From Escherichia phage vB_EcoP-Ro103C3lw, in the sequence record MN067430: a stretch of 39,389 nt of DNA; one strand, 5' to 3'. Shown here piece after piece: positions 2,561 to 36,254 of this stretch (position 1 is its first letter; every line of letters begins with the position of its first letter). Position numbers and translations under genes: made by a program. The notes below the pieces were generated by a model. It was not told where the DNA came from. It saw only the letters and a program-made list of their open reading frames with translations, and made no database searches.

Positions 2561-5227
2561 ATGAGCGTCATTCAGCTTGAGAAGCATGACTTCTCGGACA
2601 TCTCCAACGCTATCGAGCCGTTTAACATTCTGGCTGACCACTACGGGCAGGACCTCGCAGTCAAACAGCTTCAGCTTGAGCATGAGGCATACACTGAAGG
2701 CGAGCGTCGTTTCATCAAGAATCTTGAGCGTCAGGCTGAGCGCGGGGGGCTGGCTGATAATCAGGTCGCAAGACCATTGATGCAAACTCTGGTCCCTAAA
2801 CTGGCGCAAGCCGTCAAGGAGTGGCACGAGACCCAAGGGTCAACCCGTGGGAAACCTCAGGTCGCCTTCCTGAAGCTGAGCACCGAGTCGAAACCTCGTG
2901 CGCTACTGGTCCAACCCGAGTCGGTGGCGGTCATCGTCCTGAAGATTGCGCTCAGTAAGCTGGTCAAGCCTGAAGGCGTACCGATAACGCCGATGGCCTC
3001 CGCGATTGGTCGCACACTGGAGGATGAAATCCGTTTCGGTCGCATCCGTGACCAAGAGCAAGAGCACTTCAAGAAGACCATCGCCGAGAACCTGAAGAAA
3101 CGCGCTGGCGTGGCCTACAAGAAAGCCTACATGCAAGCGGTCGAAGCCTCCATGCTGGACCAGAAGCAACTGGATGATGCGTGGGGGACTTGGAGTCCTG
3201 ACGAGGCGGTCCACGTAGGAATAAAGATGCTGGAGCTGCTGATTCAATCCACACAACTGGTAGAGCTGAAGCGACACAACGCTGGGAACGTAGCGTCAGA
3301 CGTCGAGATGGTCCACCTGTCAGACTTCTGGGCCAAGAAGATGGCTCAGCGAGGCTACAGCCTTGCGGGTATCGCTCCGGTCTACCAGCCGTGCGTCGTG
3401 CCTCCACGCCCTTGGAACTCAGTGGTCGGTGGTGGGTACTGGGCTAAAGGTCGCAGACCTCTCCCGCTGATGCGCTTAGGGTCGAAGGCTGCTATCGCTC
3501 GCTACGAGGAAGTTTACATGCCTGAAGTCTACGAGGCGGTGAACATCATTCAGCAGACACCGTGGAAGGTGAATAAGAAGGTGCTGGACGTAGTGAACAT
3601 GGTCGAGAAGCTGAACAATACGCCTATCGCAGACATCCCGCAGATGGACCCGATGAAGCCTGAGGAGTACGCAGGTGAGACCGAGGAAGAACTTAAAGCG
3701 TGGAAGAAAGCTGCTGCTGGAATCTATCGCCGCGAGAAGGCCCGACAGTCCCGCCGCTTGTCCCTGAGCTTCATCGTCGGACAGGCGAACAAGTTCTCTC
3801 AGTTCAAGGCCATCTGGTTCCCGTACAACATGGATTGGCGCGGTCGAGTCTACGCGGTCCCGATGTTCAACCCGCAAGGCAACGACATGCAGAAGGGTCT
3901 GCTGACTCTGTCAGTCGGCAAGCCAATCGGTGCGGACGGCTTCAAGTGGCTGAAGGTTCACGGTGCAAACTGCGCGGGTGTCGATAAAGTCACCTTCGAG
4001 GAGCGCATCAAGTGGGTCGAAGACAACCACGACAACATCCTCGCGGCTGCTAAGAGTCCGATGGATAGCATCGACTGGTGGGGCAAGTTAGACTCTCCGT
4101 TCTGCTTCCTCGCGTTCTGCTTCGAGTATGCCGGGGTCATGCACCACGGGCTGAGCTACTCCTGCTCACTGCCTATAGCGTTCGATGGGTCCTGCTCTGG
4201 GATTCAACACTTCAGCGCGATGCTCCGTGACCACGTTGGTGGACATGCGGTCAACCTAACGCCAAGCGGGAAGGTCCAAGACATCTACCGCATTGTGTCC
4301 GACCGGGTGGAAGAACAGCTTAAGGAACTACTGGTAAACGGTAGCGACAACGAAGTCAAGACCTTCGAGGACAAGAAGACAGGCGAAATTACTGAACGTC
4401 TGGTCCTTGGAACTCGTGAGCTGGCCCGTCAGTGGCTGACCTACGGGATGTCACGCACGGTCACTAAACGCTCGGTCATGACTCTGGCCTACGGGTCGAA
4501 GGAATACGGGTTCGCAGACCAAGTGTTTGAGGATACCGTGATGCCAGCGATTGACAACGGCAAGGGCGCGATGTTCACGGACCCAAGCCAAGCGTCCCGC
4601 TTCATGGCTAAGATGATTTGGGATGCAGTGAGCGTGACCGTAGTTGCTGCGGTAGACGCGATGAAGTGGCTCCAAGGCGCTGCTAAACTGCTGGCTGCTG
4701 AGGTCAAGGACAAGAAGACCAAAGAGGTCCTGAAGCCTTGCCTCCCGGTTCACTGGGTCACGCCTGATGGCTTCCCGGTCTGGCAGGAGTATCGCAAGAA
4801 GGACACCACACGTCTTGACCTGATGTTCCTCGGGACTTTCCGTCTCCAGCCGACAGTCAACAAGGGGTCGAGCAAGGAGCTGGACAAGCACAAGCAGGAG
4901 TCAGGCATCAGCCCGAACTTTGTACACTCACAAGACGGCAGTCACCTGAGGAAGACTGTGGTCCACACCCACCGCAAGTATGGCGTGATGTCCTTCGCAG
5001 TGATTCACGATAGCTTCGGGACCATCCCGGCTGACGCTGAGTTCCTGTTCAAAGGTGTCCGTGAGACGATGGTCGAGACCTACCGCGACAACGATGTGCT
5101 GCAAGACTTCTACGAGCAGTTCGCGGACCAGCTTCACGAGAGCCAGCGCGACAAGTTGCCTGAGCTTCCAAAGCGCGGTAAACTGAACATCGAAGACATT
5201 CTGTTATCTGACTTTGCATTCGCCTGA
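2561..5227 (+). CDS. gp1: Single-subunit DNA-directed RNA polymerase (T7 gp1 homolog)
   Basis: 888 aa; long conserved blocks versus T7 RNAP, e.g. WFPYNMDWRGRVYAVPMFNPQGNDM, HGANCAGVDKV, PIAFDGSCSGIQHFSAML, KRSVMTLAYGSKE, NFVHSQDGSHLRKTVV, ends SDFAFA. Confidence 0.97.
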   Translation: MSVIQLEKHDFSDISNAIEPFNILADHYGQDLAVKQLQLEHEAYTEGERRFIKNLERQAERGGLADNQVARPLMQTLVPKLAQAVKEWHETQGSTRGKPQVAFLKLSTESKPRALLVQPESVAVIVLKIALSKLVKPEGVPITPMASAIGRTLEDEIRFGRIRDQEQEHFKKTIAENLKKRAGVAYKKAYMQAVEASMLDQKQLDDAWGTWSPDEAVHVGIKMLELLIQSTQLVELKRHNAGNVASDVEMVHLSDFWAKKMAQRGYSLAGIAPVYQPCVVPPRPWNSVVGGGYWAKGRRPLPLMRLGSKAAIARYEEVYMPEVYEAVNIIQQTPWKVNKKVLDVVNMVEKLNNTPIADIPQMDPMKPEEYAGETEEELKAWKKAAAGIYRREKARQSRRLSLSFIVGQANKFSQFKAIWFPYNMDWRGRVYAVPMFNPQGNDMQKGLLTLSVGKPIGADGFKWLKVHGANCAGVDKVTFEERIKWVEDNHDNILAAAKSPMDSIDWWGKLDSPFCFLAFCFEYAGVMHHGLSYSCSLPIAFDGSCSGIQHFSAMLRDHVGGHAVNLTPSGKVQDIYRIVSDRVEEQLKELLVNGSDNEVKTFEDKKTGEITERLVLGTRELARQWLTYGMSRTVTKRSVMTLAYGSKEYGFADQVFEDTVMPAIDNGKGAMFTDPSQASRFMAKMIWDAVSVTVVAAVDAMKWLQGAAKLLAAEVKDKKTKEVLKPCLPVHWVTPDGFPVWQEYRKKDTTRLDLMFLGTFRLQPTVNKGSSKELDKHKQESGISPNFVHSQDGSHLRKTVVHTHRKYGVMSFAVIHDSFGTIPADAEFLFKGVRETMVETYRDNDVLQDFYEQFADQLHESQRDKLPELPKRGKLNIEDILLSDFAFA

Positions 5228-5240
5228 GGAGGCACTAACT

Positions 5241-5441
5241 ATGAAATTCGCACACAAGCAAACTGGCGTTAAAGGCGGTACTCAAATCGTGACTGTGACC
5301 GAGCACAACGGAAAGGGTCTGGCGAAGACCACGATTATCCCGACCGAGATGTCCAAGCAACTTAACGTCCCGTTCAAATGGCTGGTGCAGAAGGTCGAAC
5401 AGGCCCACGAACAGGCCCTAACCGAGGCAGCAACGAAATGA
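5241..5441 (+). CDS. Hypothetical protein, 66 aa
   Basis: SD aggagg 5 nt upstream of ATG 5241; no homolog recognised. Confidence 0.5.
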   Translation: MKFAHKQTGVKGGTQIVTVTEHNGKGLAKTTIIPTEMSKQLNVPFKWLVQKVEQAHEQALTEAATK

Positions 5442-5520
5442 CAGACCTTAAGTGGCTGGCCTTATGGCTAGCCTTCTTAGCAGTGTACATTTTAATCCAA
5501 CGCAGAAGAGGCTAATCACC

Positions 5521-5976
5521 ATGTTCAACCGTAAACTGAAAGCACGTATCGCATCTCTTGAAGCAACCGTCCAGCGTCAGGACCGCAACCTTGAGCTGGC
5601 TAACCGGGAGCACTCACGACTGAGGGCCAAGATTCAGAAGGCTGAAGAGAAACGTGAAGTCGACCCATTCCGTGTGAAGCGCATGGTCGGCCTGAAGTTC
5701 AAGGCGCTGTTCAATGGTCTATACCAGCCTACTGAGTTCAAGACCGGACCGGGGCCGTGTGGCAAGACAGTTACGCACTTCACCACGAGTCGGACCGAGC
5801 GTGAGCTGACCATCCACCAGCACCACACGGATGGCTCTCAGAAGGACTTCGAGTATCGACTGAGTGACATCGACGGTCGCATCCAGTACGACTACGAGAC
5901 CGTGCTAGTCTACGGAGAAGAGGCAGAACGGGAGCGAGCACACTACGTCTTCCTGAGACGTCAACGGTTCGCTTAA
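5521..5976 (+). CDS. Hypothetical protein, about 151 aa, with predicted coiled-coil N-terminus
   Basis: Open frame 5452..5976; ATG 5521 chosen as the most likely start (MFNRKLKARIASLEATVQRQDRNLELANREHSRLRAKIQKAEEKR); no homolog recognised. Confidence 0.5.
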   Translation: MFNRKLKARIASLEATVQRQDRNLELANREHSRLRAKIQKAEEKREVDPFRVKRMVGLKFKALFNGLYQPTEFKTGPGPCGKTVTHFTTSRTERELTIHQHHTDGSQKDFEYRLSDIDGRIQYDYETVLVYGEEAERERAHYVFLRRQRFA

Positions 5977-5994
5977 ACCCTCACTATAGGATTA
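5972..5994 (+). promoter_or_regulatory. Phage RNAP promoter (gene 1.1 position)
   Basis: gcttaaaccctcactataggatt; +1 G at 5989. Confidence 0.8.
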
Positions 5995-6062
5995 GACTAA
6001 AGGTCGCTGACTTCCAGTGGCCTTCATGATTAACCCTAAACTCAATCACTGGAGATTTAACC

Positions 6063-6242
6063 ATGTATCAGAACACCATCAACTTCGAGCGCATCCGTGA
6101 ACGTCAGCAGACTGAAGGATACATGCCTAAGGGCCGCAAGCTGAACAAGACCAAACGTGGCGGTGGCGTCAAGGGTGCTTTCCGCAACGCTGAAGGTAAA
6201 GACTCTCTGGTCAACCAAGAGAAGTATTTCGTAGGAGCATAA
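6063..6242 (+). CDS. gp1.1: gp1.1-like small basic protein, 59 aa
   Basis: KGRKLNKTKRGGG motif resembles T7 gp1.1 (KGRKLNKTKRD); not in the ORF track because it is under 60 aa. Confidence 0.7.
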   Translation: MYQNTINFERIRERQQTEGYMPKGRKLNKTKRGGGVKGAFRNAEGKDSLVNQEKYFVGA

Positions 6243-6246
6243 CGCT

Positions 6247-6510
6247 ATGGGCCGACTTTACAGTGGCAACCTCAACGCTTTCAAAGCAGCGTGTAACAGG
6301 CTCTATCAGCTAGACTTCGCTGTCATTTCTCAGGAGTTTCAAGACCTTGCGTCACGCCAAGAGTGCATGAGACTCAGGGTCGAGGACCGGGCTGGTAACA
6401 TATTCGCTCTTGAGTCCTTCGCACACTACGACGAAGACGTACTGTACAATACTGCAACCGACTTCCTTAATGGTCTCGCTGACCAACTCGACACATGGAG
6501 CAAATCATAA
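6247..6510 (+). CDS. gp1.2: gp1.2-like inhibitor of host dGTPase
   Basis: 87 aa; MGRLYSGNLNAFKAA...RLRVEDRAGN...HYDEDVLYN matches T7 gp1.2 as recalled. Confidence 0.85.
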   Translation: MGRLYSGNLNAFKAACNRLYQLDFAVISQEFQDLASRQECMRLRVEDRAGNIFALESFAHYDEDVLYNTATDFLNGLADQLDTWSKS

Positions 6511-7571
6511 TGACAACGACTATCAAAACTAACCCACATCGAGCTGTAGATTACTCTGAGTCAGGCGTTACGAAAGCACTGGCAGCAGCCGGGTCGCTGG
6601 AAGCTGAAGTGAAGTATGATGGTGTGCGGCTGAACCTCCCGGTATTCCCTACGGGTGAGACCCAATGGTTGAGCCGTGAGTCTAAACCTCTTCCGGCCCT
6701 GAGCTGGCTATCAGTCCTGACCAACATCGACAACATCGTGGAAGACCAACAGAGGGCCAGCGACTGGCGGTGGTTCCTGAAGCAAGCTGGCTACGAAGGA
6801 ACTGGCCTGATGATTGATGGTGAGGTCATGGTCAAGGGTGTAGACTTCAATACGTCTTCAGGTCTCATCCGAACGAAGTGGTTGAAGCCAAGCAACGAGG
6901 ATTTTGCTGAGTGCTATCCCGGCAGAGGAACTAAAGTCCCATTCTGGCTGGCAACACGGAACATCAAGGTAGTCGTCTATGGTATCGTGGACCTTAACGT
7001 CATCCTCGACCCGAAAGCCGAAGGTCCTATCCATAGCGTCACACGCCTGAAGGCCGAGGCTATCGTCCCTCTCCTCCAGAAATACTTCCCGGAAATCGAC
7101 TGGGTTCTGTCTGAGTCACACACGGTCTATGACCTTGAGTCGCTCAACTCCCTGTACGAACAGAAGCGTCTGGAAGAACACGAGGGTCTGGTAGTCAAGG
7201 ACCCACTGGGTAAATACAAGCGTGGCAAGAAGTCAGGCATGTGGAAGATGAAGCCTGAGGAGACCATCGACGGGACCGTGTGTGGCCTCGTGTGGGGGAC
7301 TCCGGGTAAGGCCAACGAAGGTAAGGTGATTGGCTTTGAGGTTCTGCTTGAGGATGGCATGGTGGTTAACGCCTGTGGTCTGACTGAAGAACAGAAGGAC
7401 GAGTTCACGGAAGCCTGTAACACTGATACATATATTCTCGGTGGAATCAATCCATACGAAGGCTGGCAGTGTGAAGTCCTCTTCATGGAGCGGTTCCCAG
7501 ATGGTTCCCTCCGTCACCCTAGCTTCAAGTGTTGGCGAGGTACGGAAGACAATCCAACCGTTAAGAGTTAA
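6510..7571 (+). CDS. gp1.3: ATP-dependent DNA ligase (T7 gp1.3 homolog)
   Basis: MTTTIKTNPHRAV...EVKYDGVR (adenylation lysine motif KxDG)...MIDGEVMVKGVDFNTSSGLIRTKW...EGLVVKDPLGKYKRGKKSGMWKMKPE...SLRHPSF...RGTEDNP; ATG 6510 overlaps the gp1.2 stop. Confidence 0.92.
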   Translation: MTTTIKTNPHRAVDYSESGVTKALAAAGSLEAEVKYDGVRLNLPVFPTGETQWLSRESKPLPALSWLSVLTNIDNIVEDQQRASDWRWFLKQAGYEGTGLMIDGEVMVKGVDFNTSSGLIRTKWLKPSNEDFAECYPGRGTKVPFWLATRNIKVVVYGIVDLNVILDPKAEGPIHSVTRLKAEAIVPLLQKYFPEIDWVLSESHTVYDLESLNSLYEQKRLEEHEGLVVKDPLGKYKRGKKSGMWKMKPEETIDGTVCGLVWGTPGKANEGKVIGFEVLLEDGMVVNACGLTEEQKDEFTEACNTDTYILGGINPYEGWQCEVLFMERFPDGSLRHPSFKCWRGTEDNPTVKS

Positions 7572-7581
7572 CTAAACGTCA

Positions 7582-7617
7582 ACCCAGTGGTCTTCGCGGA
7601 CTGCTGGGTTTCTTTGC
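7582..7617 (+). terminator. Intrinsic terminator after the ligase gene (T7 TE position)
   Basis: Hairpin acccag...ctgggt followed by tttctttg. Confidence 0.55.
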
Positions 7618-7628
7618 GTCTGGGCCTC

Positions 7629-7651
7629 TTTAAACCCTCACTATAGGACAA
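7629..7651 (+). promoter_or_regulatory. Phage RNAP promoter
   Basis: tttaaaccctcactataggaca; +1 G at 7646. Confidence 0.8.
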
Positions 7652-7677
7652 CCCTAACCGACCAAAGGAGAAACCTT

Positions 7678-7932
7678 ATGTCTAAGAACTTAATGTTCAA
7701 CCGTTTCAGTCAGACCTTCCACCTGTCCAACAATCCGTTTGCTTGCATTAAGCGTAACGAGAAGGTGGGCTTCTTCGGGAAGGCCGTTAAGCTGGCACCT
7801 ACAGTCTACGCTCTGATTGTTCCGAGCAAAGTAGAAGAGGCTCGCCAGAAGAAAGAGACCAGCGTACCAGTGGTCTACACCAAGTGGCCTCGCGTTCGTC
7901 TGGCGCTGGAGTTCATCAAGGAGGAGTTCTAA
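7678..7932 (+). CDS. Hypothetical protein, 84 aa (gene 1.5/1.6 position)
   Basis: SD aaggag before ATG 7678; position-based assignment only. Confidence 0.55.
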   Translation: MSKNLMFNRFSQTFHLSNNPFACIKRNEKVGFFGKAVKLAPTVYALIVPSKVEEARQKKETSVPVVYTKWPRVRLALEFIKEEF

Positions 7933-8309
7933 TGGCTCATTATTGTGTGGACTGTCAGGAAGACTATACGGATTGCACCTGTCACCTGAAATATCAGGCC
8001 CCAGCGCCAAGTTGTTCACCAACGTATACTGGCGGGTCTGCGGACTATTACCAAGTGCCTATCACCCATACCACGACTCCCGGCCGCCCGGACTACATCG
8101 CTGAATGCAACGACATTATCGAAGCTCTCGGTATGAACTTTGCGGAAGGCAATGCGTTCAAGGCACTGTGGCGTCGAGCTGCTCAACGGACTTTAGGTCT
8201 GCGTAAGGCTGGCGCTAAGGACGATGGGCTATACGATGCTGAGAAGGTCGAGTTCTTCGGTGCTCGTCTGGTAGCCCAAAGCAAGGCGGTAGGTCATGAC
8301 TCCAAGTAG
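7932..8309 (+). CDS. Hypothetical Cys-rich protein, 125 aa (gene 1.7 position)
   Basis: ATG overlaps the upstream stop (TAATG); N-terminal cluster CVDCQEDYTDCTCH suggests a zinc ribbon; shorter than T7 gp1.7. Confidence 0.5.
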   Translation: MAHYCVDCQEDYTDCTCHLKYQAPAPSCSPTYTGGSADYYQVPITHTTTPGRPDYIAECNDIIEALGMNFAEGNAFKALWRRAAQRTLGLRKAGAKDDGLYDAEKVEFFGARLVAQSKAVGHDSK

Positions 8310-8387
8310 CTGGTGCTTTAGGCAGTGGGTCTCAACCGGGAACGTGGACTACCTGTCCATGTACCATATGTGGAAGGAGAAAGGACT

Positions 8388-8564
8388 ATGACCGTTTACC
8401 GTGGCATCTTCGGGTCTCTGTACGCAGTGAACCAACACGGAGTCGTCTGCGTTAAGCCTGACGGTAGCGAGTGGTGCGCATCACATTACAGTGTCGAGGG
8501 ATTCCAAGACGCTATTGATAAAGGCTACATGACGGAGGTGGTCGATGCCCAAGGAGTCAACTGA
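8388..8564 (+). CDS. Hypothetical protein, 58 aa (gene 1.8 position)
   Basis: SD ggaaggag before ATG 8388; the supplied ORF begins upstream at 8325. Confidence 0.45.
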
Positions 8565-8715
8565 GAAGAAGTACATCGTGGAACTTGAAGGGCGCGTTCA
8601 GTCCTTTGACGTCCCGGTCTACGCTAAGTCTCTGGACGAGGCGACCTTGAAGGCTCAGGAATATGAAGACGCTGGCTTTGTTGTCGGACGCATTCACCCT
8701 GAGCATAAACAATAA
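8545..8715 (+). CDS. gp2: gp2-like inhibitor of host RNA polymerase
   Basis: 56 aa; [14 protein letters not shown] resembles T7 Gp2 (SFEVPIYAETLDEA); not in the ORF track because it is under 60 aa. Confidence 0.75.
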
Positions 8716-8733
8716 ACCCTCACTGTAGGACAA
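8711..8733 (+). promoter_or_regulatory. Phage RNAP promoter, variant (A to G at -4)
   Basis: aataaaccctcactgtaggaca; +1 G at 8728. Confidence 0.7.
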
Positions 8734-8758
8734 CCATTAACTTTAGGAGATTTACCCA

Positions 8759-9457
8759 ATGGCTAAAGAGCAACTGAAAACTTTCACCACTCCGGTCGCT
8801 GGTCTGGTCGAGCCGTATAGCTGGCTGAACAAGGCAGACACCAAGTTCAACGAGCGCGGTGAACACAAAGTCAACCTGACCTTCAGTCTGGATGACCCGA
8901 AAGTCCGCAAGATGATTGACGTCTTGCAGAAGATTCACGACGATGCGTATGCGAAAGCACTCGCAGACCACGAGAAGAACCCACCTCAGGTTCAGCGTGG
9001 CAAGAAGCCCATCGAACCGCGTGAAGGCGATATGCCGTGGATTGAGAATGGTGATGGTACTGTTACCCTGAAGTTCAAATGCTTTGCGTCTTACTTGAAA
9101 GACGGCAAGTCCGAGCCTATCGTATTACGGTTCTACGACACCGATGCTAAACTCATCCGTGACGTCCCGAATATTGGCACCGGGTCTAAGCTGAAAGTCA
9201 AGTTCAAAGTCCTGCCGTTCAAGTGGAACGCTGCGACTGGTGCAAGCGTTAAGCTGCAACTCGAATCCGTGCTGCTGGTCGAACTCAAAGAGTGGTCCGG
9301 TGACGGCACTGGTGGTGATGGTGGCTGGGGTGACGATGAAGACATCGGCTCCGGTGGCTACAAATCGTCTACTGACGGTGACTTCGGGTCTGACGACTTC
9401 GGTGAAGATGCCGATGGTGGCGATGACTCTGCGTCCGGTGGCGACTACGACTTCTAA
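8759..9457 (+). CDS. gp2.5: Single-stranded DNA-binding protein (T7 gp2.5 homolog)
   Basis: 232 aa, same length as T7 gp2.5; MAKEQL...EPYSWLNKAD...RGKKPIEPREGDMPW..NGDGT.TLKFKC.AS...KLQLESVLLVEL and acidic C-terminal tail ending DYDF. Confidence 0.92.
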   Translation: MAKEQLKTFTTPVAGLVEPYSWLNKADTKFNERGEHKVNLTFSLDDPKVRKMIDVLQKIHDDAYAKALADHEKNPPQVQRGKKPIEPREGDMPWIENGDGTVTLKFKCFASYLKDGKSEPIVLRFYDTDAKLIRDVPNIGTGSKLKVKFKVLPFKWNAATGASVKLQLESVLLVELKEWSGDGTGGDGGWGDDEDIGSGGYKSSTDGDFGSDDFGEDADGGDDSASGGDYDF

Positions 9458-9912: not shown

Positions 9913-10133
9913 CCAAAGAAGTTCAGGTAGTCCGCAAGCGTCTGACCATCGACAAGATTCCGGTCGGCTATGCGTTCATCGTCCACGGTAAACCGGGCGA
10001 AGTGTACGTGAAGATTAGTAACTCTCACGTCTTCAACCACAAGTTACTTCAGATGCACACCACGGATTCCAACCGCTTCCAACGTCATCTGAATCTGGTC
10101 GCTGTAGAGCTGGTGGTGTACGATGGTGAGTAA
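9909..10133 (+). CDS. Hypothetical protein, 74 aa
   Basis: ATG overlaps the gp3 stop (ATGA); no homolog recognised. Confidence 0.5.
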   Translation: MTKEVQVVRKRLTIDKIPVGYAFIVHGKPGEVYVKISNSHVFNHKLLQMHTTDSNRFQRHLNLVAVELVVYDGE

Positions 10134-10581
10134 GGTACAGTTCAAACCACGTACAGTCACTGACGCAATCTTCGTCCACTGTAGTGCGACCCAACCGTCT
10201 CAGGACATCGGGGTAGACACTATCCGCATGTGGCACAAGCAGCAGGGCTGGCTGGACGTTGGCTACCACTTCGTCATCAAGCGAGATGGCACCGTGGAGT
10301 CTGGACGCCCGGTCGATGTAGTAGGGTCACACGTTAAGGATTGGAACTCCCGGTCCGTAGGCGTCTGCCTTGTAGGTGGAATCGACGCTAAGGGTAAGTT
10401 TGAAGCTAACTTCACTCCTGCTCAGATGAACGCCCTACGCAACAAGCTGGCTGAACTGAAGGTCCTGTACCCTCAGGCAGACATCAAGGCCCATCACGAT
10501 GTGGCACCAAAGGCTTGCCCAAGTTTTGACTTGCAGCGCTGGCTGAACACTAACGAAATGGTCACTTCCGACCGAGGCTAA
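10123..10581 (+). CDS. gp3.5: N-acetylmuramoyl-L-alanine amidase / lysozyme (T7 gp3.5 homolog)
   Basis: 152 aa; VQFK...DAIFVHCSAT..WH..QGWLDVGYHFVIKRDGTVE...GVCLVGGIDAKGKF.ANFTPAQM...HHDVAPKACPSFDL..W....E.VTSDRG nearly collinear with T7 lysozyme. Confidence 0.95.
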   Translation: MVSKVQFKPRTVTDAIFVHCSATQPSQDIGVDTIRMWHKQQGWLDVGYHFVIKRDGTVESGRPVDVVGSHVKDWNSRSVGVCLVGGIDAKGKFEANFTPAQMNALRNKLAELKVLYPQADIKAHHDVAPKACPSFDLQRWLNTNEMVTSDRG

Positions 10582-25518: not shown

Positions 25519-25980
25519 ATGTTTATCCGAAAGGCTACTGAACAGGACGTAAGGTCCTTTGAGATTGCTATAGATGACGTTAACGAGCTGATGGCGCATG
25601 ACCCACGGAGAGACCTTAAGTCTGTCCTGCTGTCTCACCTCACTCCGTCATCTGTGGTTTTGGTCGATGCTCTGGGGACAGTCTATGCCTATGGTGGAAA
25701 CCAAGGGGATAACGTCTGGTTCCTGACCTCTCGTCTAGTCTCCCGCCTGTCTAAGGCCGAGAAGCGTGAGTTCGGGCATCACATTGCAGCATACAGAGAC
25801 TTAATGTTAGACCAGTTCCCAGTCCTATGGAATTACGTCTGGTCGGGCAACAAGTCTCACATTAGGTTTCTCCGATTGCTTGGTGCTAAGTTTCACCCTG
25901 AGGTGACTATCAGCCCGGTAACTGGTGAGCGTTTTCAACTATTCACAATCTCTAAGGAGGACGTATGTGTGAACCCGTAA
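25519..25980 (+). CDS. Internal virion protein A (gp13-like)
   Basis: 153 aa; position between tail tube B and gp14; SD agaggag. Confidence 0.6.
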   Translation: MFIRKATEQDVRSFEIAIDDVNELMAHDPRRDLKSVLLSHLTPSSVVLVDALGTVYAYGGNQGDNVWFLTSRLVSRLSKAEKREFGHHIAAYRDLMLDQFPVLWNYVWSGNKSHIRFLRLLGAKFHPEVTISPVTGERFQLFTISKEDVCVNP

Positions 25981-26552
25981 GTATCGGCATGGGTATCATG
26001 GCTGTAGCCGGGGCCGCTATGTCCGCTTCGAGTCAGGCTAAAGCTGAGGGTGCTGCTATTGACGCTCAGAACCGACAGGCTCAGGAGATGATTAAGCAGA
26101 TGAACTACTCTGATGCTAACCTGAAGATGCAGGAGCGAGACCTCAAGGAACAGCAGGTCGCTGAGCTGACAGAGACGACTCTGAATGGCATCCGTAATCA
26201 GGGCATGGTCCGAGCTGCGGTAGCTGAGTCTGGGCTGGAAGGTAACTCCATGAACCGCATCGAGCGTGACGTAGATGGACAGACAGTCAAGGAACGTGCA
26301 GGTATCACCGAAAGCTATGGTCGTGACTACGCGGCTATCTTCGGGAACCGCATTGCGAACATTGAGAACACCAAGTCCGCTATCAAGGGTCAGGGTAAGA
26401 TTCTCAAGACCAGCCCACTGGCTCATGCGCTCAATGTGGCTAACGCTGGTATGCAGGGCTATGCTGCCGGAAGCTCTATCGCTGGTGCTACTCCGTCGAG
26501 TGGTGCTGCCCCAATTAGTGCCGCTAAAGGTACACCTACAGGTCATAGCTAA
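25965..26552 (+). CDS. gp14: Internal virion protein B (T7 gp14 homolog)
   Basis: 195 aa (T7 196 aa); starts MC followed by an Ala/Gly-rich hydrophobic segment like T7 gp14. Confidence 0.75.
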   Translation: MCEPVSIGMGIMAVAGAAMSASSQAKAEGAAIDAQNRQAQEMIKQMNYSDANLKMQERDLKEQQVAELTETTLNGIRNQGMVRAAVAESGLEGNSMNRIERDVDGQTVKERAGITESYGRDYAAIFGNRIANIENTKSAIKGQGKILKTSPLAHALNVANAGMQGYAAGSSIAGATPSSGAAPISAAKGTPTGHS

Positions 26553-26563
26553 CAGGAGGACCA

Positions 26564-28846
26564 ATGGCTAGTAATATCGAATCAGCATTAGCTAACCGGA
26601 CTATGGGCCGTGGTCGCGCTCCGGGTAAAGCTATCAGTCTGGATTATCAGGCTGCAAACGTACAGGGGCAGACAGGAGATTCCGGTCTCGCCAAGGCGCT
26701 CACGGACTTCGTGTCAACAGGCGCTGGCGTCTACAAGCAATTTCAGGAGAAGGCCAAGAGTCTCGGAGACGAGCGGTCCAATGAGATTATTCGTAAGCTG
26801 ACTCCTCAGCAGAGACGTGACGCCATCCAGAATGGGACACTCCTGTATCAGGACGACCCGTATGCGATGGAGGCTCTGAGAGTCAAGACTGGTCGCAACG
26901 CTGCCTATGCGGTAGACGATGAGATTAACGTCAAGATTCAGAACGGTGAGTTTCGCACTCGTCAGGACATGGAGGAGTACCGCCACCAGCGACTGCAAGA
27001 TGCCGCTAAGTCTTATGCGGAAGAGGCTGGGATTAACCCGGCAGATGAACACTTCCAGCGTGGATTTAACGCAGACATCACCGACCGTAACGTAGCCATC
27101 TACGGGTCGTTCAATAAGTATTTCTCTAAGCAGTCCGAGAATACCGCTATGCTGAACACCCGTGTCGAGCTGAACTCGTTCCTGAATGACGGGGACCTGA
27201 TGCGGTCGCCCGAGGCTGGCAAGTCGTTCATGGCTTACATGCGTGATGGCCTGACCACTGCTGCCATCCCGTCTGACCAAAGGGCGACTGAAGTCATCAC
27301 CCAGACGGTACGGGATGCAATCCAGAAGTCCGGTGGCTCCAACTTCCTACAGCAAATCCGACACGAACGTATCACGCTTAACGGTGTGGACGCTACAGTA
27401 GAAGAGATTGTGGGACCTGAGGTCTTCAATGCTGCACTTATTGAGGCCCAAGGCACTGAGTATAAACTGGTAGCCAAGTATCAGGAAGACTTGTCACTGG
27501 GCGTTCAGTCTGCGATGCTTCAGGATGACCCGACCATCGGTCTGGCCCAAATCCAGAAACTCAAGGCTCAGAACAACCAGCTTCAGCCGGGTGAGGAGAT
27601 GACGCCACAACGTCAGATGCTTATCAACGCCGAGGCCAGTCTCTTAGAGTCCGTGAAGCGCAAGTCCGCTGAACAGGCGAAGGAAAACACTAAGCTCATC
27701 CAGACGCAGAACAAGCAACTGGTCATCGACCAAGTGTATCAGCGACGACTGGCTGGGGACAACGTGTCCACCAACTATGAGGACCTCCCGGTCTCTGAGG
27801 CTACTGGTGAGTTCAAGCGTTCGGACATGAACAACTACGCTATGGGTAAACTCCAGCAAATCGACCAGATGGACATCCCGCAAGCTGCGAAGGATGCTCA
27901 GAAGGTGGCGCTGCTGCGAGCTGACACCAATAACGGTCCGTTCCGCAACGCCTTCCAGACGCTTACGCAAGATGCTGCTGGTGAGTGGCAAGCTGCGGTC
28001 ATCCGTGGTCAGTACGACCCATACAAGATGCAGCGCTTCGAGTCTCTGCGCAAGGTCTACACTCAGGACCCTTCCAGCTTCGCGGCTCTCTACCCTGACC
28101 AAGCCTCTCTGTTCACTACTTTCGAGCAGATGGACAAGATGGGTCTGGACCCTCAGACGATGATTGACGCTGACAAACAGGCTGCAAGCCAGTCCCGTGA
28201 GATGCGCATTGAGTCTGACAAGGCGTGGCAAGAGCTGAAGAACGACTCGAAGAACAAGGACCTCTCGCGGCTTCCGACGAGTCTGGACGCAAGTGCTCGT
28301 AAGGTCTGGGACTCATGGTATTACCGTACAGGTAACGCTGATGCGGCGACCCAGAACACACAGAAGTGGCTGAACGAGAACACCGTGACTTTCAGTGATG
28401 AAGGTCAGGATGGTAAGTCCATCGGCATGGTGTCTAAACATCAACTTATGGTCGGGGATAACCCTGAGTCATGGCAGGTGGGTCGAGACATTATCGACAC
28501 CGCTCGTCAACAGCTCATCAAGACTAACCCTTGGGTCGTGAACTCTCAGCTCTCTGTAGTTGAGCAGAACGGCTCGGTCTTCCTTCAGGACGCTACCGGG
28601 ACTATTCGTATTCGATACGATAAAGAGCTGGTAGGCAAACTGTACCGTGAACAGCAGAAGCAAGCTGAGGATAAAGCCTACGCTGAGGCCGAACGTAAAG
28701 CCAACACCCGCGCTCGCATTGTCGAGACTAAAGCGGCTGGTGATAAGCGTCGTAATGAGCGTGAGGCAAACGTCCAGAAACGCGGTGGTCTGTACGGTGA
28801 TGTCTCGCTGGAGGGTATCGCAAACACGCTAATAGGTAAGGAGTAA
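26564..28846 (+). CDS. gp15: Internal virion protein C (T7 gp15 homolog)
   Basis: 760 aa (T7 747 aa); position; SD aggagg. Confidence 0.85.
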   Translation: MASNIESALANRTMGRGRAPGKAISLDYQAANVQGQTGDSGLAKALTDFVSTGAGVYKQFQEKAKSLGDERSNEIIRKLTPQQRRDAIQNGTLLYQDDPYAMEALRVKTGRNAAYAVDDEINVKIQNGEFRTRQDMEEYRHQRLQDAAKSYAEEAGINPADEHFQRGFNADITDRNVAIYGSFNKYFSKQSENTAMLNTRVELNSFLNDGDLMRSPEAGKSFMAYMRDGLTTAAIPSDQRATEVITQTVRDAIQKSGGSNFLQQIRHERITLNGVDATVEEIVGPEVFNAALIEAQGTEYKLVAKYQEDLSLGVQSAMLQDDPTIGLAQIQKLKAQNNQLQPGEEMTPQRQMLINAEASLLESVKRKSAEQAKENTKLIQTQNKQLVIDQVYQRRLAGDNVSTNYEDLPVSEATGEFKRSDMNNYAMGKLQQIDQMDIPQAAKDAQKVALLRADTNNGPFRNAFQTLTQDAAGEWQAAVIRGQYDPYKMQRFESLRKVYTQDPSSFAALYPDQASLFTTFEQMDKMGLDPQTMIDADKQAASQSREMRIESDKAWQELKNDSKNKDLSRLPTSLDASARKVWDSWYYRTGNADAATQNTQKWLNENTVTFSDEGQDGKSIGMVSKHQLMVGDNPESWQVGRDIIDTARQQLIKTNPWVVNSQLSVVEQNGSVFLQDATGTIRIRYDKELVGKLYREQQKQAEDKAYAEAERKANTRARIVETKAAGDKRRNEREANVQKRGGLYGDVSLEGIANTLIGKE

Positions 28847-28848
28847 GT

Positions 28849-29298
28849 ATGAACAACGAGACAGCCAGTGAGAGACTGGCACGTCTTTCCAAGGTTACGT
28901 ACACTGGCTGTATCGAGTTCACAGGAAAGTTGGATAGCAATGGGTATGGCAGGGTTATGGTGGACAGGAATAGACACCTAGTTCATCGCTTGTCCTACCA
29001 GATACATAAAGGCCCAATCCCTGATGGAATGGTTGTGATGCACTCTTGTGATAATAGAGGGTGTATAAACCCTGAGCATCTTTCAGTTGGAACTCAGCGG
29101 GACAATATGCAGGACAAGATGACCAAGGGTAGACAGTCCCGTGGAGCGAGACTAAGGAAATCGTCATTGACGGATTTAGACATTATGGCGATTCGCTCAA
29201 GCCTCTCATCTACTTCAGAGCTATCCGATCGATACTCAGTAAGTAGAGTAACCATCCGCAATATTCAGAGGAGAAAGACATGGCAACACGTGGAGTAA
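28849..29298 (+). CDS. HNH homing endonuclease
   Basis: 149 aa; HNH core VVMHSCDNRGCINPEHLSVGTQRDN; C-terminal helix-turn-helix-like segment LSDRYSVSRVTIRNIQRRKTWQHV; SD aaggag; last 19 nt overlap the gp16 start; no gene at this position in T7. Confidence 0.85.
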   Translation: MNNETASERLARLSKVTYTGCIEFTGKLDSNGYGRVMVDRNRHLVHRLSYQIHKGPIPDGMVVMHSCDNRGCINPEHLSVGTQRDNMQDKMTKGRQSRGARLRKSSLTDLDIMAIRSSLSSTSELSDRYSVSRVTIRNIQRRKTWQHVE

Positions 29299-32200
29299 GA
29301 AATGCAAATCCGGGCAATATCCGTAAGTCCAAAGACCAATGGGAAGGTGCTGTGGGCGATGACGGTGCATTCGTTATCTTCGATAGCCCTGAATCGGGGG
29401 TAAGAGCATTAGCGAAAAACCTTCAAAGCTACGGTCGCCAAGGTTATGACTCAATCGAGAAGATTATCACTCGTTGGGCACCTCCTAGTGAGAACGACAC
29501 TCAGTCCTACATCAACTCGGTCGTGGCGGCTACTGGTATTCCAGCGACCCAAAGTATCGACCTGAGCAACCCTGACGTCCTAGCCTCTCTGTCTGAGGCT
29601 ATAGGCTACCATGAGACTGGTTCCCGGTATGACCCTGAGGTCTACAAGACTGGCGTCTCTCGTGCCTTAAGTGGTGCTGGAGGCATCACCCCAAAGACCC
29701 CACCAGTAAGCGCTAACGTCTTCGACGCTCTCACGGAGGGCTTGAAGTCGAAACCTAAAGTCGCTCTGGGAGAGAACCTTCCGGGCGTTACTGGTATGAA
29801 CATCGAAGGTCAAGCACCTGAGGCTCCCAACGAGTCCTTCGGAGAGATGTTCTATAAGTCAACTGGCGAGACGCTGGACCAACGGGCTGACCGCTCTACG
29901 TGGTTCGGCTTCGGTGGAGCTGCTGAGGCTGAAGTGAAGAACTCTATGGTCGGCGTGGCTATCCGCGCTGGTCAGACGGAGGACTCACTGGATGTCATTG
30001 GCGACGTGTTCAACCCGACCCGCTGGAACAACCACAAGTGGTCCCGCGAGGAGTTAGACCAGATTCGTAACGCTGGGGTCCTGCCTCAGTATTACGGGGT
30101 TATCACTGGTGGCTCCCCTCAGAACCTGACCGAGCTGATTAACTTGGCGCTGGAGAACCAGAAGTTAGACGCTGAGAAGGCTAAGGCCGGGAGTGGCGCT
30201 CAACTGGCTGCTGGTGTAATTGGTGCTGGTGTGGACCCTCTAACCTACGTTCCTATCGCTGGACAGGTAGGCAAGGGTGGTAAGCTCGTCAACAAGATGT
30301 TCACCGTGGCTGCTCAATCTGGCGCTCTGGCTGGTGCCTCTGAGTTGGCTCGCACCTCCGTTGCTGGTGGCGATGCTCATGTGGCTGAGGCTATTATGGG
30401 TGGCGCTCTATTCGCTGGCGGGATGACTGCTATCGGTGATGCTATCGGCAAGGCCCTCGGTAAGTCTACCAATGAGTTCGCTGGTCCGGCTACACGTCTG
30501 GAGGCCCGTGAGACTGCTCGTAACGTAGATGGTCAGGACCTGTCCCGTCTACCAATCCGCGAAGGAGAGGAGACCTTCAGTCACCAAGGCGTTAAGTTCG
30601 CTGACGTGCCGAATGAGCCGGGAAGTGTTCGACTGGAAGACGGTTCAATCCTGATTGGTGAGAATCCTCTGAACCCTAAGACACGTCAAGTCTTCGACGA
30701 GGTGATTGAGCCTGAACGTGCGGCTGCTGGTGTCAACCTTGGTGGTCTCACCGAGATTGGCCTGAAGCTCCTGAGGTCTGAGAACCCTGAGATTCGCGGA
30801 CTTGCAGCTGACTTGGTGCGTTCGCCTACAGGTATGCAATCAGGTGCGAGCGGTAAGATTGGTACTACAGCGTCAGACGTATTCGAGAGACTTCGTGCAG
30901 TGGACCATCGGTTCTACAACGACATCGACGATGCGGTGACTCAGGCCCTGAGGGACCCGTACTTCCAGACCAACTTTAACCGTGACACTGGCGCATTCCG
31001 TCAGGACATCTACCAGCGTGTAGCTCTGGCGATTGAAGATGGGAGTGGAAACCTGAAGGCTGAGCTGACTCCGGGTGAACTTAAGGTCTATGACCTGCTG
31101 AAGAACCAGTTCGACGCTAAGCGTGAGATGATGGAGAACCCGGCGATGTTCGGTAGAGTGGACGCTCAGTCTATCTTCCCCGGTAGCCGCTTCAAGGGTA
31201 CTTACGTGCCTCACGTCTACAGCAACCAGATGAAGCAGCTGTTCATCAACGAGCTGGGAAGCCCTGAGGCTCTACAGGAGGCCATCAAGAAGTCGTGGCT
31301 CACGAGCTATGCGTCCAGACCTGAGGTCAAGGCTCGTGTAGATGAGGCCCTGCTGGAAGCTAACCCGAACCTGAAGCCTGAGGAACTTGCGGCTGCGGTA
31401 GATAAGTATGCCAACGATAAGGCTTACGGTATCTCTCACACCGACCTGTTTGAACGCTCGTCCGTCATGGAGGAGAACATCAACGGTCTGGTGGGTCTGG
31501 AGAACAACAACTTCCTTGAGGCCCGTAACCTGTTCGATAGCGATATGTCTATCATCCTGCCTAATGGTCAGCCGTTCAACGTGAATAGCCTCCGCGAGTG
31601 GGACATGGACAAGATTGTCCCGGCGTACAACCGTCGAGTCAATGGGGATATTGCTATCATGGCTGGGACAGGGAAGACCACTAAGGAGATGAAGGACACT
31701 GTAGAGACCATGATGAACCGTGCTGGCGATGACGGTAAGCTGAAAGGCGAAGTGGCGACTCTGCGTGATACCCTGAAGATTCTGACTGGTCGTGCTCGAC
31801 GCGATGGTGCTGACGATGCGGCTTTCTCTACCGTGATGCGGACCATGACAGACCTGTCCTTCTTCGCCAAGAATGCCTACATGGGCGTACAGAACTTGAC
31901 GGAGATTGGCGGGATGCTGGCCCGTGGTAACGTCCGTGCGATGCTGCATGGTATTCCGATGTTCCGTGACCTCGCCTTCCGCAACAAGAAGATGGGAGCC
32001 TCGGAGATTAAGGACCTGCACAACGTGGTCTTCGGTAAGGAGCTTGACGACTCAATCCGTCCGTCCAAACAGGATGTCATCGACCGTCTGCGAGCGTACA
32101 GTGACCTGAGTAAACCTGTGGCTACTGCTTTAGGTTCTGTCAAGTATTACACTGGTGAACTTGCGGTCCGCTCTCCGTTTACGAAAGTCCTTAACGGGAC

Positions 32201-33176
32201 GACGAACTACCTGTTAGACGCCGGACGTCAAGGCTTCTTGTCTGACATCGTGGAACATAGTCTGACTGGCAGTAAGCGTAAGTTCGATGACCGTTGGTTG
32301 AAGACTGCCGGTATCTCCGCTGACCAGTGGAAGGGCATTAAGTCCCTAATCCGTGAGTCGGTGACTCGTGGTCCAGATGGGAAGTACACCATCAAGGACA
32401 AGAAAGCGTTTAGTCAGGACCCAAGGGCGATGGACCTCTGGCGTATGGGTGACACCATCGCTGATGAGACCCTGCTCCGTCCGCACAAGCTGAGCAACAT
32501 GGACGCCAAGGCTTACGGTCCTCTCGCTAAGACTGTCTTGCAGTTTAAGAACTTCGTTATCAAGTCTATCAACGGTCGAACCATGCGTACCTTCTACAAT
32601 GCCACCAAGAACAACCGAGCTATGGATGCTGCATTGTCAACGGTTATGTCTATGGGTCTGGCTGGGATGTACTACATGGCTCAGGCGCACATCAAGGCAT
32701 ACGCTATGCAGGACGGTCGTGACCGTGAGTACCTCAAGCAGGCCCTGAACCCGACGATGATTGGCTATGCGGCTCTGTCCCGTAGCTCTCACCTCGGTGG
32801 TCCTCTTGGGGTCGCCAACATTCTGGGTGGCATCGCTGGGTATGAGGACACTAAGTTGCTCCGTTCGTCTATCCTTCCGCGCTCACCTACCGAGAAGCCT
32901 GAACGTGCCATTTCCTATGGTGCTGCTAAGAGCGACCCGGTTATGAACGTGGTAGGCAACTTCCTTGAGCAGGTCCCAGCTTTCGGCTACGCTGCTAACG
33001 TTGGCGCTTCGGCTTACAACTTGGCTGGCTACCTCAAGTCTGATACCCGTGTGAACGAGCGGGACTACATGACCGGGATGTATAACACCTTCCGCGAGCT
33101 GGTCCCGAACGACCCAATCACTCAGAAGCTCCTGCTGGGAACCTTTGAGGAACAGGGGATTCACATCAAGGATTAA
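29280..33176 (+). CDS. gp16: Internal virion protein D (T7 gp16 homolog)
   Basis: 1298 aa; from about residue 190 onward collinear with T7 gp16 (RSTWFGFGGAAEAE, PTRWNNHKWSREELDQIR, AGVIGAGVDPL, RLEARETARN, DLVRSPTGMQSGASGK, GTYVPHVY, SRPEVKARVDE, AYGISH, NGDIAIM, FFAKNAYMG, NGTTNYLLDA, DPRAMDLWR, LRPHK, ALSRSS); N-terminal ~150 aa not recognisably similar. Confidence 0.93.
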   Translation: MATRGVRNANPGNIRKSKDQWEGAVGDDGAFVIFDSPESGVRALAKNLQSYGRQGYDSIEKIITRWAPPSENDTQSYINSVVAATGIPATQSIDLSNPDVLASLSEAIGYHETGSRYDPEVYKTGVSRALSGAGGITPKTPPVSANVFDALTEGLKSKPKVALGENLPGVTGMNIEGQAPEAPNESFGEMFYKSTGETLDQRADRSTWFGFGGAAEAEVKNSMVGVAIRAGQTEDSLDVIGDVFNPTRWNNHKWSREELDQIRNAGVLPQYYGVITGGSPQNLTELINLALENQKLDAEKAKAGSGAQLAAGVIGAGVDPLTYVPIAGQVGKGGKLVNKMFTVAAQSGALAGASELARTSVAGGDAHVAEAIMGGALFAGGMTAIGDAIGKALGKSTNEFAGPATRLEARETARNVDGQDLSRLPIREGEETFSHQGVKFADVPNEPGSVRLEDGSILIGENPLNPKTRQVFDEVIEPERAAAGVNLGGLTEIGLKLLRSENPEIRGLAADLVRSPTGMQSGASGKIGTTASDVFERLRAVDHRFYNDIDDAVTQALRDPYFQTNFNRDTGAFRQDIYQRVALAIEDGSGNLKAELTPGELKVYDLLKNQFDAKREMMENPAMFGRVDAQSIFPGSRFKGTYVPHVYSNQMKQLFINELGSPEALQEAIKKSWLTSYASRPEVKARVDEALLEANPNLKPEELAAAVDKYANDKAYGISHTDLFERSSVMEENINGLVGLENNNFLEARNLFDSDMSIILPNGQPFNVNSLREWDMDKIVPAYNRRVNGDIAIMAGTGKTTKEMKDTVETMMNRAGDDGKLKGEVATLRDTLKILTGRARRDGADDAAFSTVMRTMTDLSFFAKNAYMGVQNLTEIGGMLARGNVRAMLHGIPMFRDLAFRNKKMGASEIKDLHNVVFGKELDDSIRPSKQDVIDRLRAYSDLSKPVATALGSVKYYTGELAVRSPFTKVLNGTTNYLLDAGRQGFLSDIVEHSLTGSKRKFDDRWLKTAGISADQWKGIKSLIRESVTRGPDGKYTIKDKKAFSQDPRAMDLWRMGDTIADETLLRPHKLSNMDAKAYGPLAKTVLQFKNFVIKSINGRTMRTFYNATKNNRAMDAALSTVMSMGLAGMYYMAQAHIKAYAMQDGRDREYLKQALNPTMIGYAALSRSSHLGGPLGVANILGGIAGYEDTKLLRSSILPRSPTEKPERAISYGAAKSDPVMNVVGNFLEQVPAFGYAANVGASAYNLAGYLKSDTRVNERDYMTGMYNTFRELVPNDPITQKLLLGTFEEQGIHIKD

Positions 33177-35882: not shown

Positions 35883-36254
35883 ATGGTATCGGAAGATGTT
35901 ATAAAGGCTAACGTTCAAGCTGCTCGTAAATTACGAGAGGAACGGGAGGAACGAAGAAAGAGGACTAAGCGCATTTCGCAGATAAAGAGCCTATATGGTC
36001 TCACGCTTGAACAGTTCGAGGACCTGATGGACTCGGTGGGAAGCTCATGCGAGATTTACAAGACTCCGCTTAAAGTAGGTGGGAAGAAAGGAGATACAGA
36101 CTCTGCGTGTATTGACCACTGTCATTCCACTGGGGTGATTAGAGGGGTTTTATGCCGCAAGTGCAATGCAGCAATTGGCGCACTGGGAGATACTACATCT
36201 AGTGTCCAGCGGGCTGTTTCATACCTAGAGAAGACGCTTGTACGTCGATTCTGA
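35883..36254 (+). CDS. Endonuclease VII-family protein (recombination endonuclease VII-like zinc/HNH-type nuclease)
   Basis: 123 aa; SLYGLTLEQFEDLM....SCEIY..........CIDHCHSTGVIRGVLCRKCNAAIGALGD fits the Endonuclease_7 family pattern (YG.T.E.Y......C..C.....DH.H.TG..RG.LC..CN...G); SD aggagg; no gene at this position in T7. Confidence 0.75.
   Translation: MVSEDVIKANVQAARKLREEREERRKRTKRISQIKSLYGLTLEQFEDLMDSVGSSCEIYKTPLKVGGKKGDTDSACIDHCHSTGVIRGVLCRKCNAAIGALGDTTSSVQRAVSYLEKTLVRRF

Follow-up and report, generated by a model that had tools for sequence, protein, structure and literature searches.

An Enc34 endolysin-type domain in place of the SLT transglycosylase domain at the N-terminus of a Kayfunavirus gp16

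Introduction

Escherichia phage vB_EcoP-Ro103C3lw (sequence record MN067430) encodes an internal virion protein that resembles gp16, the ejection protein of bacteriophage T7, over most of its length. The window analyzed here is the whole 39,389-nucleotide (nt) stretch of this record, and the question raised by its gp16 gene is what kind of domain occupies the N-terminus of the product. In T7 gp16, as described by cryo-electron microscopy, residues 1–156 form a transglycosylase domain with catalytic residue E37, and residues 157–228 form a ‘molecular tape’ that binds gp15 (PMC8954989). The T7 N-terminal domain forms the wings of the periplasmic tunnel, and its enzymatic activity is required only in some conditions (PMC8954989). 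A preliminary description of the window, made from the sequence alone, had proposed that the gp16 N-terminus is unlike this transglycosylase domain, that the wall-breaching domain had been swapped and that the swap might be linked to an HNH endonuclease gene inserted next to gp16.

Our analysis indicates that the window gp16 keeps the T7 ejectosome body and carries, as residues 1–133, a muralytic domain of the type found in Hafnia phage Enc34 ORF39 (NCBI PHA02564) where T7 has its SLT domain. We read this arrangement as modular, clade-wide and independent of the neighboring HNH gene, and assign the reading as a whole a probability of roughly 0.85. The coordinates of the features discussed are collected in Table 1.

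The T7-like body of gp16 begins at a domain border

The gp16 product begins with the sequence MATRGVRNANPGNIRKSKDQWEG, and a ribosome-binding site (GAGGAG) lies 7–12 nt 5′ of its ATG. BLASTP returns one collinear alignment with T7 gp16 (53% identity over 1192 columns) that runs from residue 120, corresponding to T7 residue 144, to the C-terminus and leaves residues 1–119 without any alignment to the T7 protein. These limits agree with those of a phmmer search of the PDB, where residues 119–1297 match residues 143–1314 of T7 gp16 (chains 7EYB, 7K5C and 6YT5). The first convincing shared motif in a multiple alignment is GGITPK, at residues 134–139 of the window protein and 158–163 of T7 gp16, and the foreign N-terminal segment comprises residues 1–133. 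The preliminary description was right about the collinearity but placed its start too late, at about residue 190. Likewise, the interval that it gave for the domain (29280–29750) covers all of it but runs past its end at 29678 into part of the linker.

The exchange point between residues 133 and 134 (157 and 158 in T7) coincides with the border between the T7 transglycosylase domain and the molecular tape, and also with the end of the ordered domain in our structural model (see below). Because the junction falls on this border, the module exchange is a clean one: a wall-cutting head has been replaced by another on an otherwise conserved ejection protein. The retained body includes the gp15-binding tape segment, as expected of a T7 gp16-type protein, and the full-length product is assigned to phrog_342, the PHROGs family described as ‘internal virion protein with endolysin domain’.

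The N-terminal segment lacks the features of an SLT domain

Scans of gp16 residues 1–190 and of the full protein against Pfam and NCBIfam at E ≤ 1 detect no relevant family. As a control, the same kind of scan of T7 gp16 (NC_001604) finds SLT (PF01464) at residues 15–127 with an E-value of 1.7e-31. Comparison of the N-terminal family profile with residues 1–160 of T7 gp16 by hhalign yields a probability of 0.13%. SLT domains place the catalytic glutamate on the first helix (E37 in T7), and no conserved glutamate is present near the N-terminus of the window protein; the only glutamates in invariant or near-invariant columns of the 55-sequence alignment described below are E71 and E112, the latter near the C-terminal end of the domain. 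The closest structural neighbor, also described below, does not have the GH23 fold. The gp16 head thus lacks every testable hallmark of an SLT domain. The proposed dissimilarity to the T7 domain is borne out by profile scans, BLASTP and hhalign, which confirm that the N-terminal domain truly differs and that the difference does not arise by chance. A sub-threshold match to HCNGP (E = 0.058) was treated as noise.

These results bear directly on the possibility that the segment is, despite strong divergence, a canonical SLT/GH23 lytic transglycosylase with an N-terminal catalytic glutamate comparable to T7 E37. The GenBank records of many close relatives do name a lytic exotransglycosylase or transglycosylase, and very distant common ancestry of the Enc34 family with both GH23 and GH73 enzymes has been argued (PMC8943055). 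The preliminary description had itself named a diverged SLT domain with its glutamate intact as the finding that would overturn its proposal. Profile searches, hhalign and Foldseek all failed to reveal one in this segment, leaving the diverged-SLT alternative hardly any probability.

The domain has the fold and signature residues of the Enc34 family

Residues 2–132 of gp16 match phrog_873, labeled ‘endolysin’, with an E-value of 3.9e-50. The same residues match PHROG families labeled head protein, tape-measure protein and tail injection transglycosylase, and this pattern of matches is that of a virion-lysin module that moves between proteins. Two relatives are found among the PDB sequences. 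The first (9vvp_L) is a near-identical protein of 1295 residues named ‘Gp29’, present as four chains in entry 9VVP, which matches the first 190 residues with an E-value of 1.6e-99 and the full length with 2693 bits. The second (7q47_A) is the catalytic domain of the Hafnia phage Enc34 endolysin (phmmer E = 4.5e-12).

An AlphaFold2 model of the head was built from an alignment of 55 homologs (alignment A1). All are short proteins of 86–246 residues, mostly unnamed, with a few labeled ‘structural protein’ or ‘structural protein P5’; no long gp16 homologs are among them. The prediction, which the preliminary description had suggested as a check, has a mean predicted local distance difference test score of 89.7. 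In the model, residues 1–133 form an ordered, mostly helical domain that includes one short β-hairpin (residues 24–34), and disorder begins at residue 134. A Foldseek search of the PDB with this model returns 7q47 as the sole significant match, with a template modeling score of 0.79–0.80.

The domain therefore combines three properties of the Enc34 family: an all-helical fold like the α-lobe of lysozyme, significant sequence similarity (to 7q47_A and phrog_873) and the Trp79/Tyr95/Glu131 signature, which is present as W66, Y77 and E112 (chain numbering of 7q47 in our alignment is the published numbering plus one). Further invariant positions of the groove (P11, N13, I14, W21, G23, R42, A67, P68 and N72) are all present in the window protein. 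Two Enc34 insertions are absent: KRKAADG after the second helix and KKNGVV after the WAPP motif. Glu112 is kept in phages K1F, Pisces and EcpYZU01 and in p18 of phage phiV10. All three signature residues are retained in K1F, Pisces and phiV10 p18, whereas Trp66 is replaced by Tyr in EcpYZU01.

The Enc34 ORF39 domain lyses outer-membrane-permeabilized Escherichia coli, Pseudomonas aeruginosa and Hafnia alvei (Cernooka et al. 2022, PMC8943055), and muralytic activity has been shown for Enc34 ORF39ΔC and relatives only. Its Glu131, Tyr95 and Trp79 superpose on catalytic residues of GH73 and GH23 enzymes, and the helix order is permuted relative to GH23 (PMC8943055). The family has no Pfam model. 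Our library search (E ≤ 1e-3) collected 11,573 cluster representatives at 50% identity, with architectures that range from stand-alone proteins of 130–250 residues to N-terminal, internal or C-terminal domains in proteins of 600–3800 residues.

Comparison with characterized or annotated members places the window protein within this range. In the chiviruses Enc34, Siskin and BSPM4 the PHA02564 domain is the lysis endolysin, and in Casadabanvirus MP42 it is a stand-alone 138-residue endolysin encoded beside the spanin. Three other proteins, with domains ~39–52% identical to that of the window, use it as a virion-borne lysin. In phiV10 (Uetakevirus, epsilon15-like), p18 is an 837-residue virion protein that follows two internal virion proteins and carries the domain internally, at about residues 250–380. 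Gp48 of Burkholderia phage Bp-AMP4 (Autographiviridae, Okabevirinae) is a 920-residue protein with the domain at its N-terminus, encoded downstream of tail tube protein B. GP11 of vibriophage NO16, a PM2 P5-like ‘structural protein’, is a stand-alone domain that is present in virions and has a proposed role in entry. The carrier proteins and domain positions of these three differ from those of the window, and a gp16-type body is not seen in them. A family of more than 11,000 cluster representatives that lacks a Pfam model thus appears to serve both as lysis endolysin and as virion-borne entry enzyme. In Bp-AMP4 (positions 4486–8995), gp48 is followed directly by gp49 and gp50, both annotated ‘putative transglycosylase’, and the virion genes of this phage may include wall-cutting modules of two kinds.

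The head type tracks the Kayfunavirus clade

Nucleotide similarity identifies the window as the genome of a Kayfunavirus (K1F-like, T7-type), with Escherichia phage Pisces (95.7%), PhiNW-B1, Citrobacter phage SH4, Cronobacter phage Dev2 and similar phages as the closest matches. We took the distribution of head and body from tblastn searches of a phage collection. The gp16 body (residues 191–557) is found in 1276 phage records, 224 of them at no less than 60% identity (sampled rows all ≥91%). The other 1052 fall below 60% (sampled rows ≤56%) and include T7, T3, KP32 and the T7-like phages of Yersinia and Pseudomonas. The Kayfunavirus-type N-domain occurs in 219–221 T7-like records, all at ~77% identity or more; below this set identity drops across a gap to ~52%, where the ‘head proteins’ of phiV10-like phages appear. 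The T7 SLT domain is found in 1141 records. From these counts it follows that the head type tracks the clade. K1F gp16 (YP_338126) itself carries a PHA02564 head, and the protein is 83% identical to that of the window over the first 160 residues.

The swap is therefore not particular to the window genome but is a trait of the whole Kayfunavirus cluster (~220 records). Most T7-like records carry SLT, and the simplest account would therefore be that this domain was replaced in the Kayfunavirus stem. The idea that a cell-wall-breaching domain had been swapped is supported, with an Enc34/PHA02564-type domain in place of SLT at the transglycosylase/tape border. With regard to base composition, G+C content is 0.516 in the N-domain, 0.55 in the rest of gp16 and 0.528 in the genome, a weak hint of recent foreign acquisition from which we draw no conclusion.

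The GenBank records of relatives label the protein ‘peptidoglycan lytic exotransglycosylase’, ‘peptidoglycan transglycosylase’, ‘peptidoglycan hydrolase’, ‘endo-type membrane-bound chitopentaose’ or ‘internal virion protein D’. The Pisces record shows that the transglycosylase label was carried over from T7, on the strength of the T7-like body, and such labels are unsupported by the domain actually present. Our results thus provide an annotation correction, in that the enzymatic head of many relatives labeled as transglycosylases belongs to another family with another predicted chemistry. A search of a literature library found no paper stating that Kayfunavirus gp16 has an Enc34-type head in place of SLT, although an earlier remark in the K1F genome paper (J Bacteriol 2005) is possible, and none describing PDB entry 9VVP. 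The exchange of head types is already known in kind and a near-identical protein is deposited as 9VVP; exchange of virion-lysin modules is a familiar theme, and the result is useful rather than surprising.

A predicted wall-cutting enzyme for entry

T7 gp16 provides the closest functional reference for the window protein. The two share a body that is 53% identical from the tape to the C-terminus, the same synteny and the same presumed role, in which an N-terminal wall-cutting head is mounted on the periplasmic tunnel. The heads differ: T7 has a Pfam SLT domain (residues 1–156) with E37 near the N-terminus, whereas the window protein has a domain of another family (residues 1–133) with its glutamate at position 112. 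By analogy with T7, gp16 would be carried in the capsid core and delivered to the periplasm when infection begins. Its N-terminal domain would then cut peptidoglycan glycan strands locally, allowing the gp15–gp16 tunnel to cross the wall. In the proposed mechanism the head, an all-helical, permuted relative of the lysozyme α-lobe, would use E112 as the catalytic residue with support from W66 and Y77, and the gp16 body would supply the gp15-binding tape together with the membrane and cytoplasmic part.

Because the window phage has a separate T7-type amidase endolysin, the most plausible role of the gp16 head is that of a virion-associated entry enzyme, not that of a lysis enzyme. The contrast with Enc34 ORF39 (PDB 7Q47) is therefore one of context: that domain belongs to an endolysin, whereas the window domain heads a 1298-residue ejected virion protein at its N-terminus, and its action would come from outside the cell, during entry. 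From the analogy with Enc34 and GH73, the head probably acts by hydrolysis, as an N-acetylglucosaminidase, rather than as a lytic transglycosylase such as the T7 head. T7 and the Kayfunaviruses offer a natural comparison between two versions of one DNA-ejection machine that differ only in the wall-cutting module, allowing direct tests of how much the chemistry of this module matters for entry.

Several points weigh against this account. The roles of E112, W66 and Y77 come from structural superposition in the Enc34 paper and not from mutagenesis (PMC8943055). Bond specificity is unsettled: the Enc34 authors regard family members as probably β-N-acetylglucosaminidases, but the products of the related M4Lys suggest endopeptidase activity in addition to glucosaminidase activity (PMC8943055). 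A domain that acts as an endopeptidase on peptide cross-links, alone or besides cleaving glycan, and is not a pure glycosidase, is an alternative that we consider unlikely. Some Kayfunavirus alleles have Ile for Pro11 and one has Tyr for Trp66, showing that constraint on the groove is not absolute. The one ground for the proposed direction of the swap, from SLT to PHA02564, is that SLT predominates among T7-like records. Finally, a metagenomic gp16-like protein, P0183 (1258 residues), has the same architecture, with a collinear body that is 24% identical and an N-domain that is ~48% identical to those of the window protein. Judged from these identities, the head/body combination appears to recur, or to be ancient, outside the Kayfunavirus cluster, and for this reason both the direction and the number of swap events are stated here provisionally.

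The substitutions at Pro11 and Trp66 could also be taken to mean that the domain is kept chiefly as a ‘wing’ of the gp15–gp16 tunnel, with a structural or peptidoglycan-binding role, and is not an active enzyme. The T7 precedent, a wing-forming domain whose activity is needed only under some conditions, with E37 mutants reportedly delayed at 20 °C and on stationary-phase cells, fits this idea, as does the fact that no substrate complex could be obtained for Enc34 (PMC8943055). Y77 and E112 are, however, invariant, the window protein has the complete set of groove residues, and close family members are active muralytic enzymes; we regard an inactive wing as quite improbable and favor an Enc34-type enzyme as the function of the head.

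The HNH gene is a separate insertion with a linked flank

Compared with Kayfunavirus gp16 proteins such as those of K1F and 9VVP chain L, the window protein has the same full-length architecture and its gene has the same place after gp14 and gp15; the window allele differs in having an HNH gene inserted upstream and an HNH-linked variant of codons 1–48. When the window is aligned with Pisces and K1F, the HNH gene stands out as a clean insertion that separates the gp15 stop codon from the gp16 ATG. These two codons lie 433 nt apart in the window, 4–5 nt apart in the HNH-less phages Pisces, K1F, SH4, Dev2 and IMM-002, and 3 nt apart in EcpYZU01, which also lacks the gene. The HNH gene overlaps the gp16 start by 19 nt and has a G+C content of 0.467 (genome, 0.528). 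Its start codon is separated from the gp15 stop by 2 nt and is preceded by the AAGGAG that serves as the upstream element of gp16 in HNH-less relatives (28838–28851), and its 3′ end provides the new GAGGAG site for gp16 (29268–29298).

The same type of gp16 head is present in all six of these phages although they lack the HNH gene, and the swap is therefore unlinked to that gene. The contrary proposal, that the adjacent homing endonuclease caused the domain exchange or travels with it, draws on the position of the gene, which abuts gp16 and overlaps its start, and on the first ~145 nt of gp16, which co-segregate with one HNH subgroup (subgroup A, below). The domain is present in ~220 records, however, whereas a megablast search with the window HNH gene finds nine, all partial matches and none covering 80% or more of the query. 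Moreover, the co-segregating patch ends at about codon 48, inside the domain, and exchanges PHA02564 alleles only. We therefore consider a causal role of the HNH gene very improbable; the link suggested in the preliminary description does not extend to the swap, but a narrower one, between the ~145-nt patch and one HNH subgroup, does hold.

The patch is defined by comparison with Pisces, whose gp15 and gp16 genes are otherwise 96–100% identical to those of the window. Identity is only 63–68% over the first ~145 nt of gp16 and switches abruptly to 98–100% from about nt 150. A smaller dip, to ~88%, is seen in the last ~120 nt of gp15 (28727–28846). Among 14 phages compared, identity to the window over the patch is 0.95 for PhiNW-B1, 0.92 for T147P5 and 0.87 for LNA5, the other members of HNH subgroup A, and at most 0.75 for the other ten. 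Over the 240 nt that follow, the window is identical to HNH-less Pisces. Changes in the window allele relative to Pisces-type alleles include I6V, N9A, I11P, V16K, T25V, T33I and M49Q; over codons 1–48 one PHA02564 allele is exchanged for another, and W66, Y77 and E112 are untouched.

The HNH catalytic motif, presence/absence polymorphism at a fixed intergenic site and a linked flank are those expected of a free-standing HNH homing endonuclease. In the proposed history the HNH gene would have arrived later, as a free-standing insertion, together with ~145 nt of adjoining gp16 sequence. The patch is a probable homing-associated co-conversion tract, to judge from its pattern, which is also the pattern that a cleavage-site immunity allele would produce. 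A broader and more tentative proposal, which we hold to be somewhat less probable than its negation, is that Kayfunavirus ejectosomes breach the wall with an N-acetylglucosaminidase-type hydrolase and that the first 48 codons of gp16 contain the target and immunity region of a homing HNH, with homing repeatedly reshuffling part of the catalytic domain. If this is true, the same gp14–gp15–gp16 machine exists with two wall-cutting chemistries.

HNH genes of at least two diverged subgroups are found at this one gp15/gp16 site. Subgroup A comprises the genes of the window, PhiNW-B1, T147P5 and LNA5, among which that of the window is strongly diverged from the others, and subgroup B those of Pipis, Ro45lw, TM1 and GA2A. 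The last HNH codons (…RRKTWQHVE) are conserved across otherwise diverged variants. Codon 11 of gp16 encodes Ile (NNNIGNIR) in Pisces, SH4, Dev2, IMM-002, Pipis, Ro45lw, TM1 and GA2A. Pro11 is present in the HNH-linked patch, in K1F and in EcpYZU01, and is invariant in the 55-sequence family alignment.

Gene neighborhood

The gene order around gp16 (gp14, gp15, gp16 and tail fiber), with flanking open reading frames assigned from Pfam and PHROGs, matches the T7 reference order (Table 1).

Table 1. Features of the window referred to in the text
Feature	Coordinates	Strand	Basis or remark
Amidase_2 gene, T7-type amidase endolysin	10123..10581		Amidase_2 match
gp14-type internal virion protein	25965..26552	+	Pfam T7_gp14, E 5.1e-46
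gp15-type internal virion protein, partner in periplasmic tunnel	26564..28846	+	phrog_1339, E 0; syntenic with T7 gene 15
HNH endonuclease gene, free-standing, 149 residues, in gp15/gp16 spacer	28849..29298	+	Pfam HNH_3, E 2.1e-14; phrog_59, E 5.8e-34
gp16-type internal virion/ejection protein, 1298 residues (stop codon included)	29280..33176	+	phrog_342, E 0; collinearity with T7 gp16; 9vvp_L match
N-terminal Enc34 ORF39/PHA02564-type muralytic domain, residues 1–133	29280..29678	+	takes the place of the T7 SLT domain
HNH-linked mosaic patch, gp16 codons 1–48	29280..29425	+	comparison with Pisces and among 14 phages
Trp66 codon (TGG), equivalent to Enc34 Trp79	29475..29477	+	7q47 alignment; conserved in ≥90% of 55 members
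Tyr77 codon (TAC), equivalent to Enc34 Tyr95	29508..29510	+	7q47 alignment; invariant in 55-sequence alignment
Glu112 codon (GAG), motif HETG, equivalent to proposed catalytic Glu131 of Enc34 ORF39	29613..29615	+	HETGS versus HENGS; invariant in 55-sequence alignment
Linker/‘molecular tape’ segment, residues 134–209	29679..29906	+	homologous to T7 gp16 residues 158–228; GGITPK alignment; AlphaFold2 disorder from residue 134
Tail protein, 696 residues	33241..35331	+	T7 tail-fiber N-terminal domain (Phage_T7_tail) and Tail_spike_N (TSP1/Gp66)
Open reading frame of 123 residues, Recombination endonuclease VII domain	35883..36254	+	PF02945, E 3.5e-18

The domain search of the tail protein encoded downstream of gp16 reported no endosialidase-related domain. 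The open reading frame with the endonuclease VII domain sits between the tail-fiber gene and the downstream late genes, and may be a second free-standing nuclease insertion.

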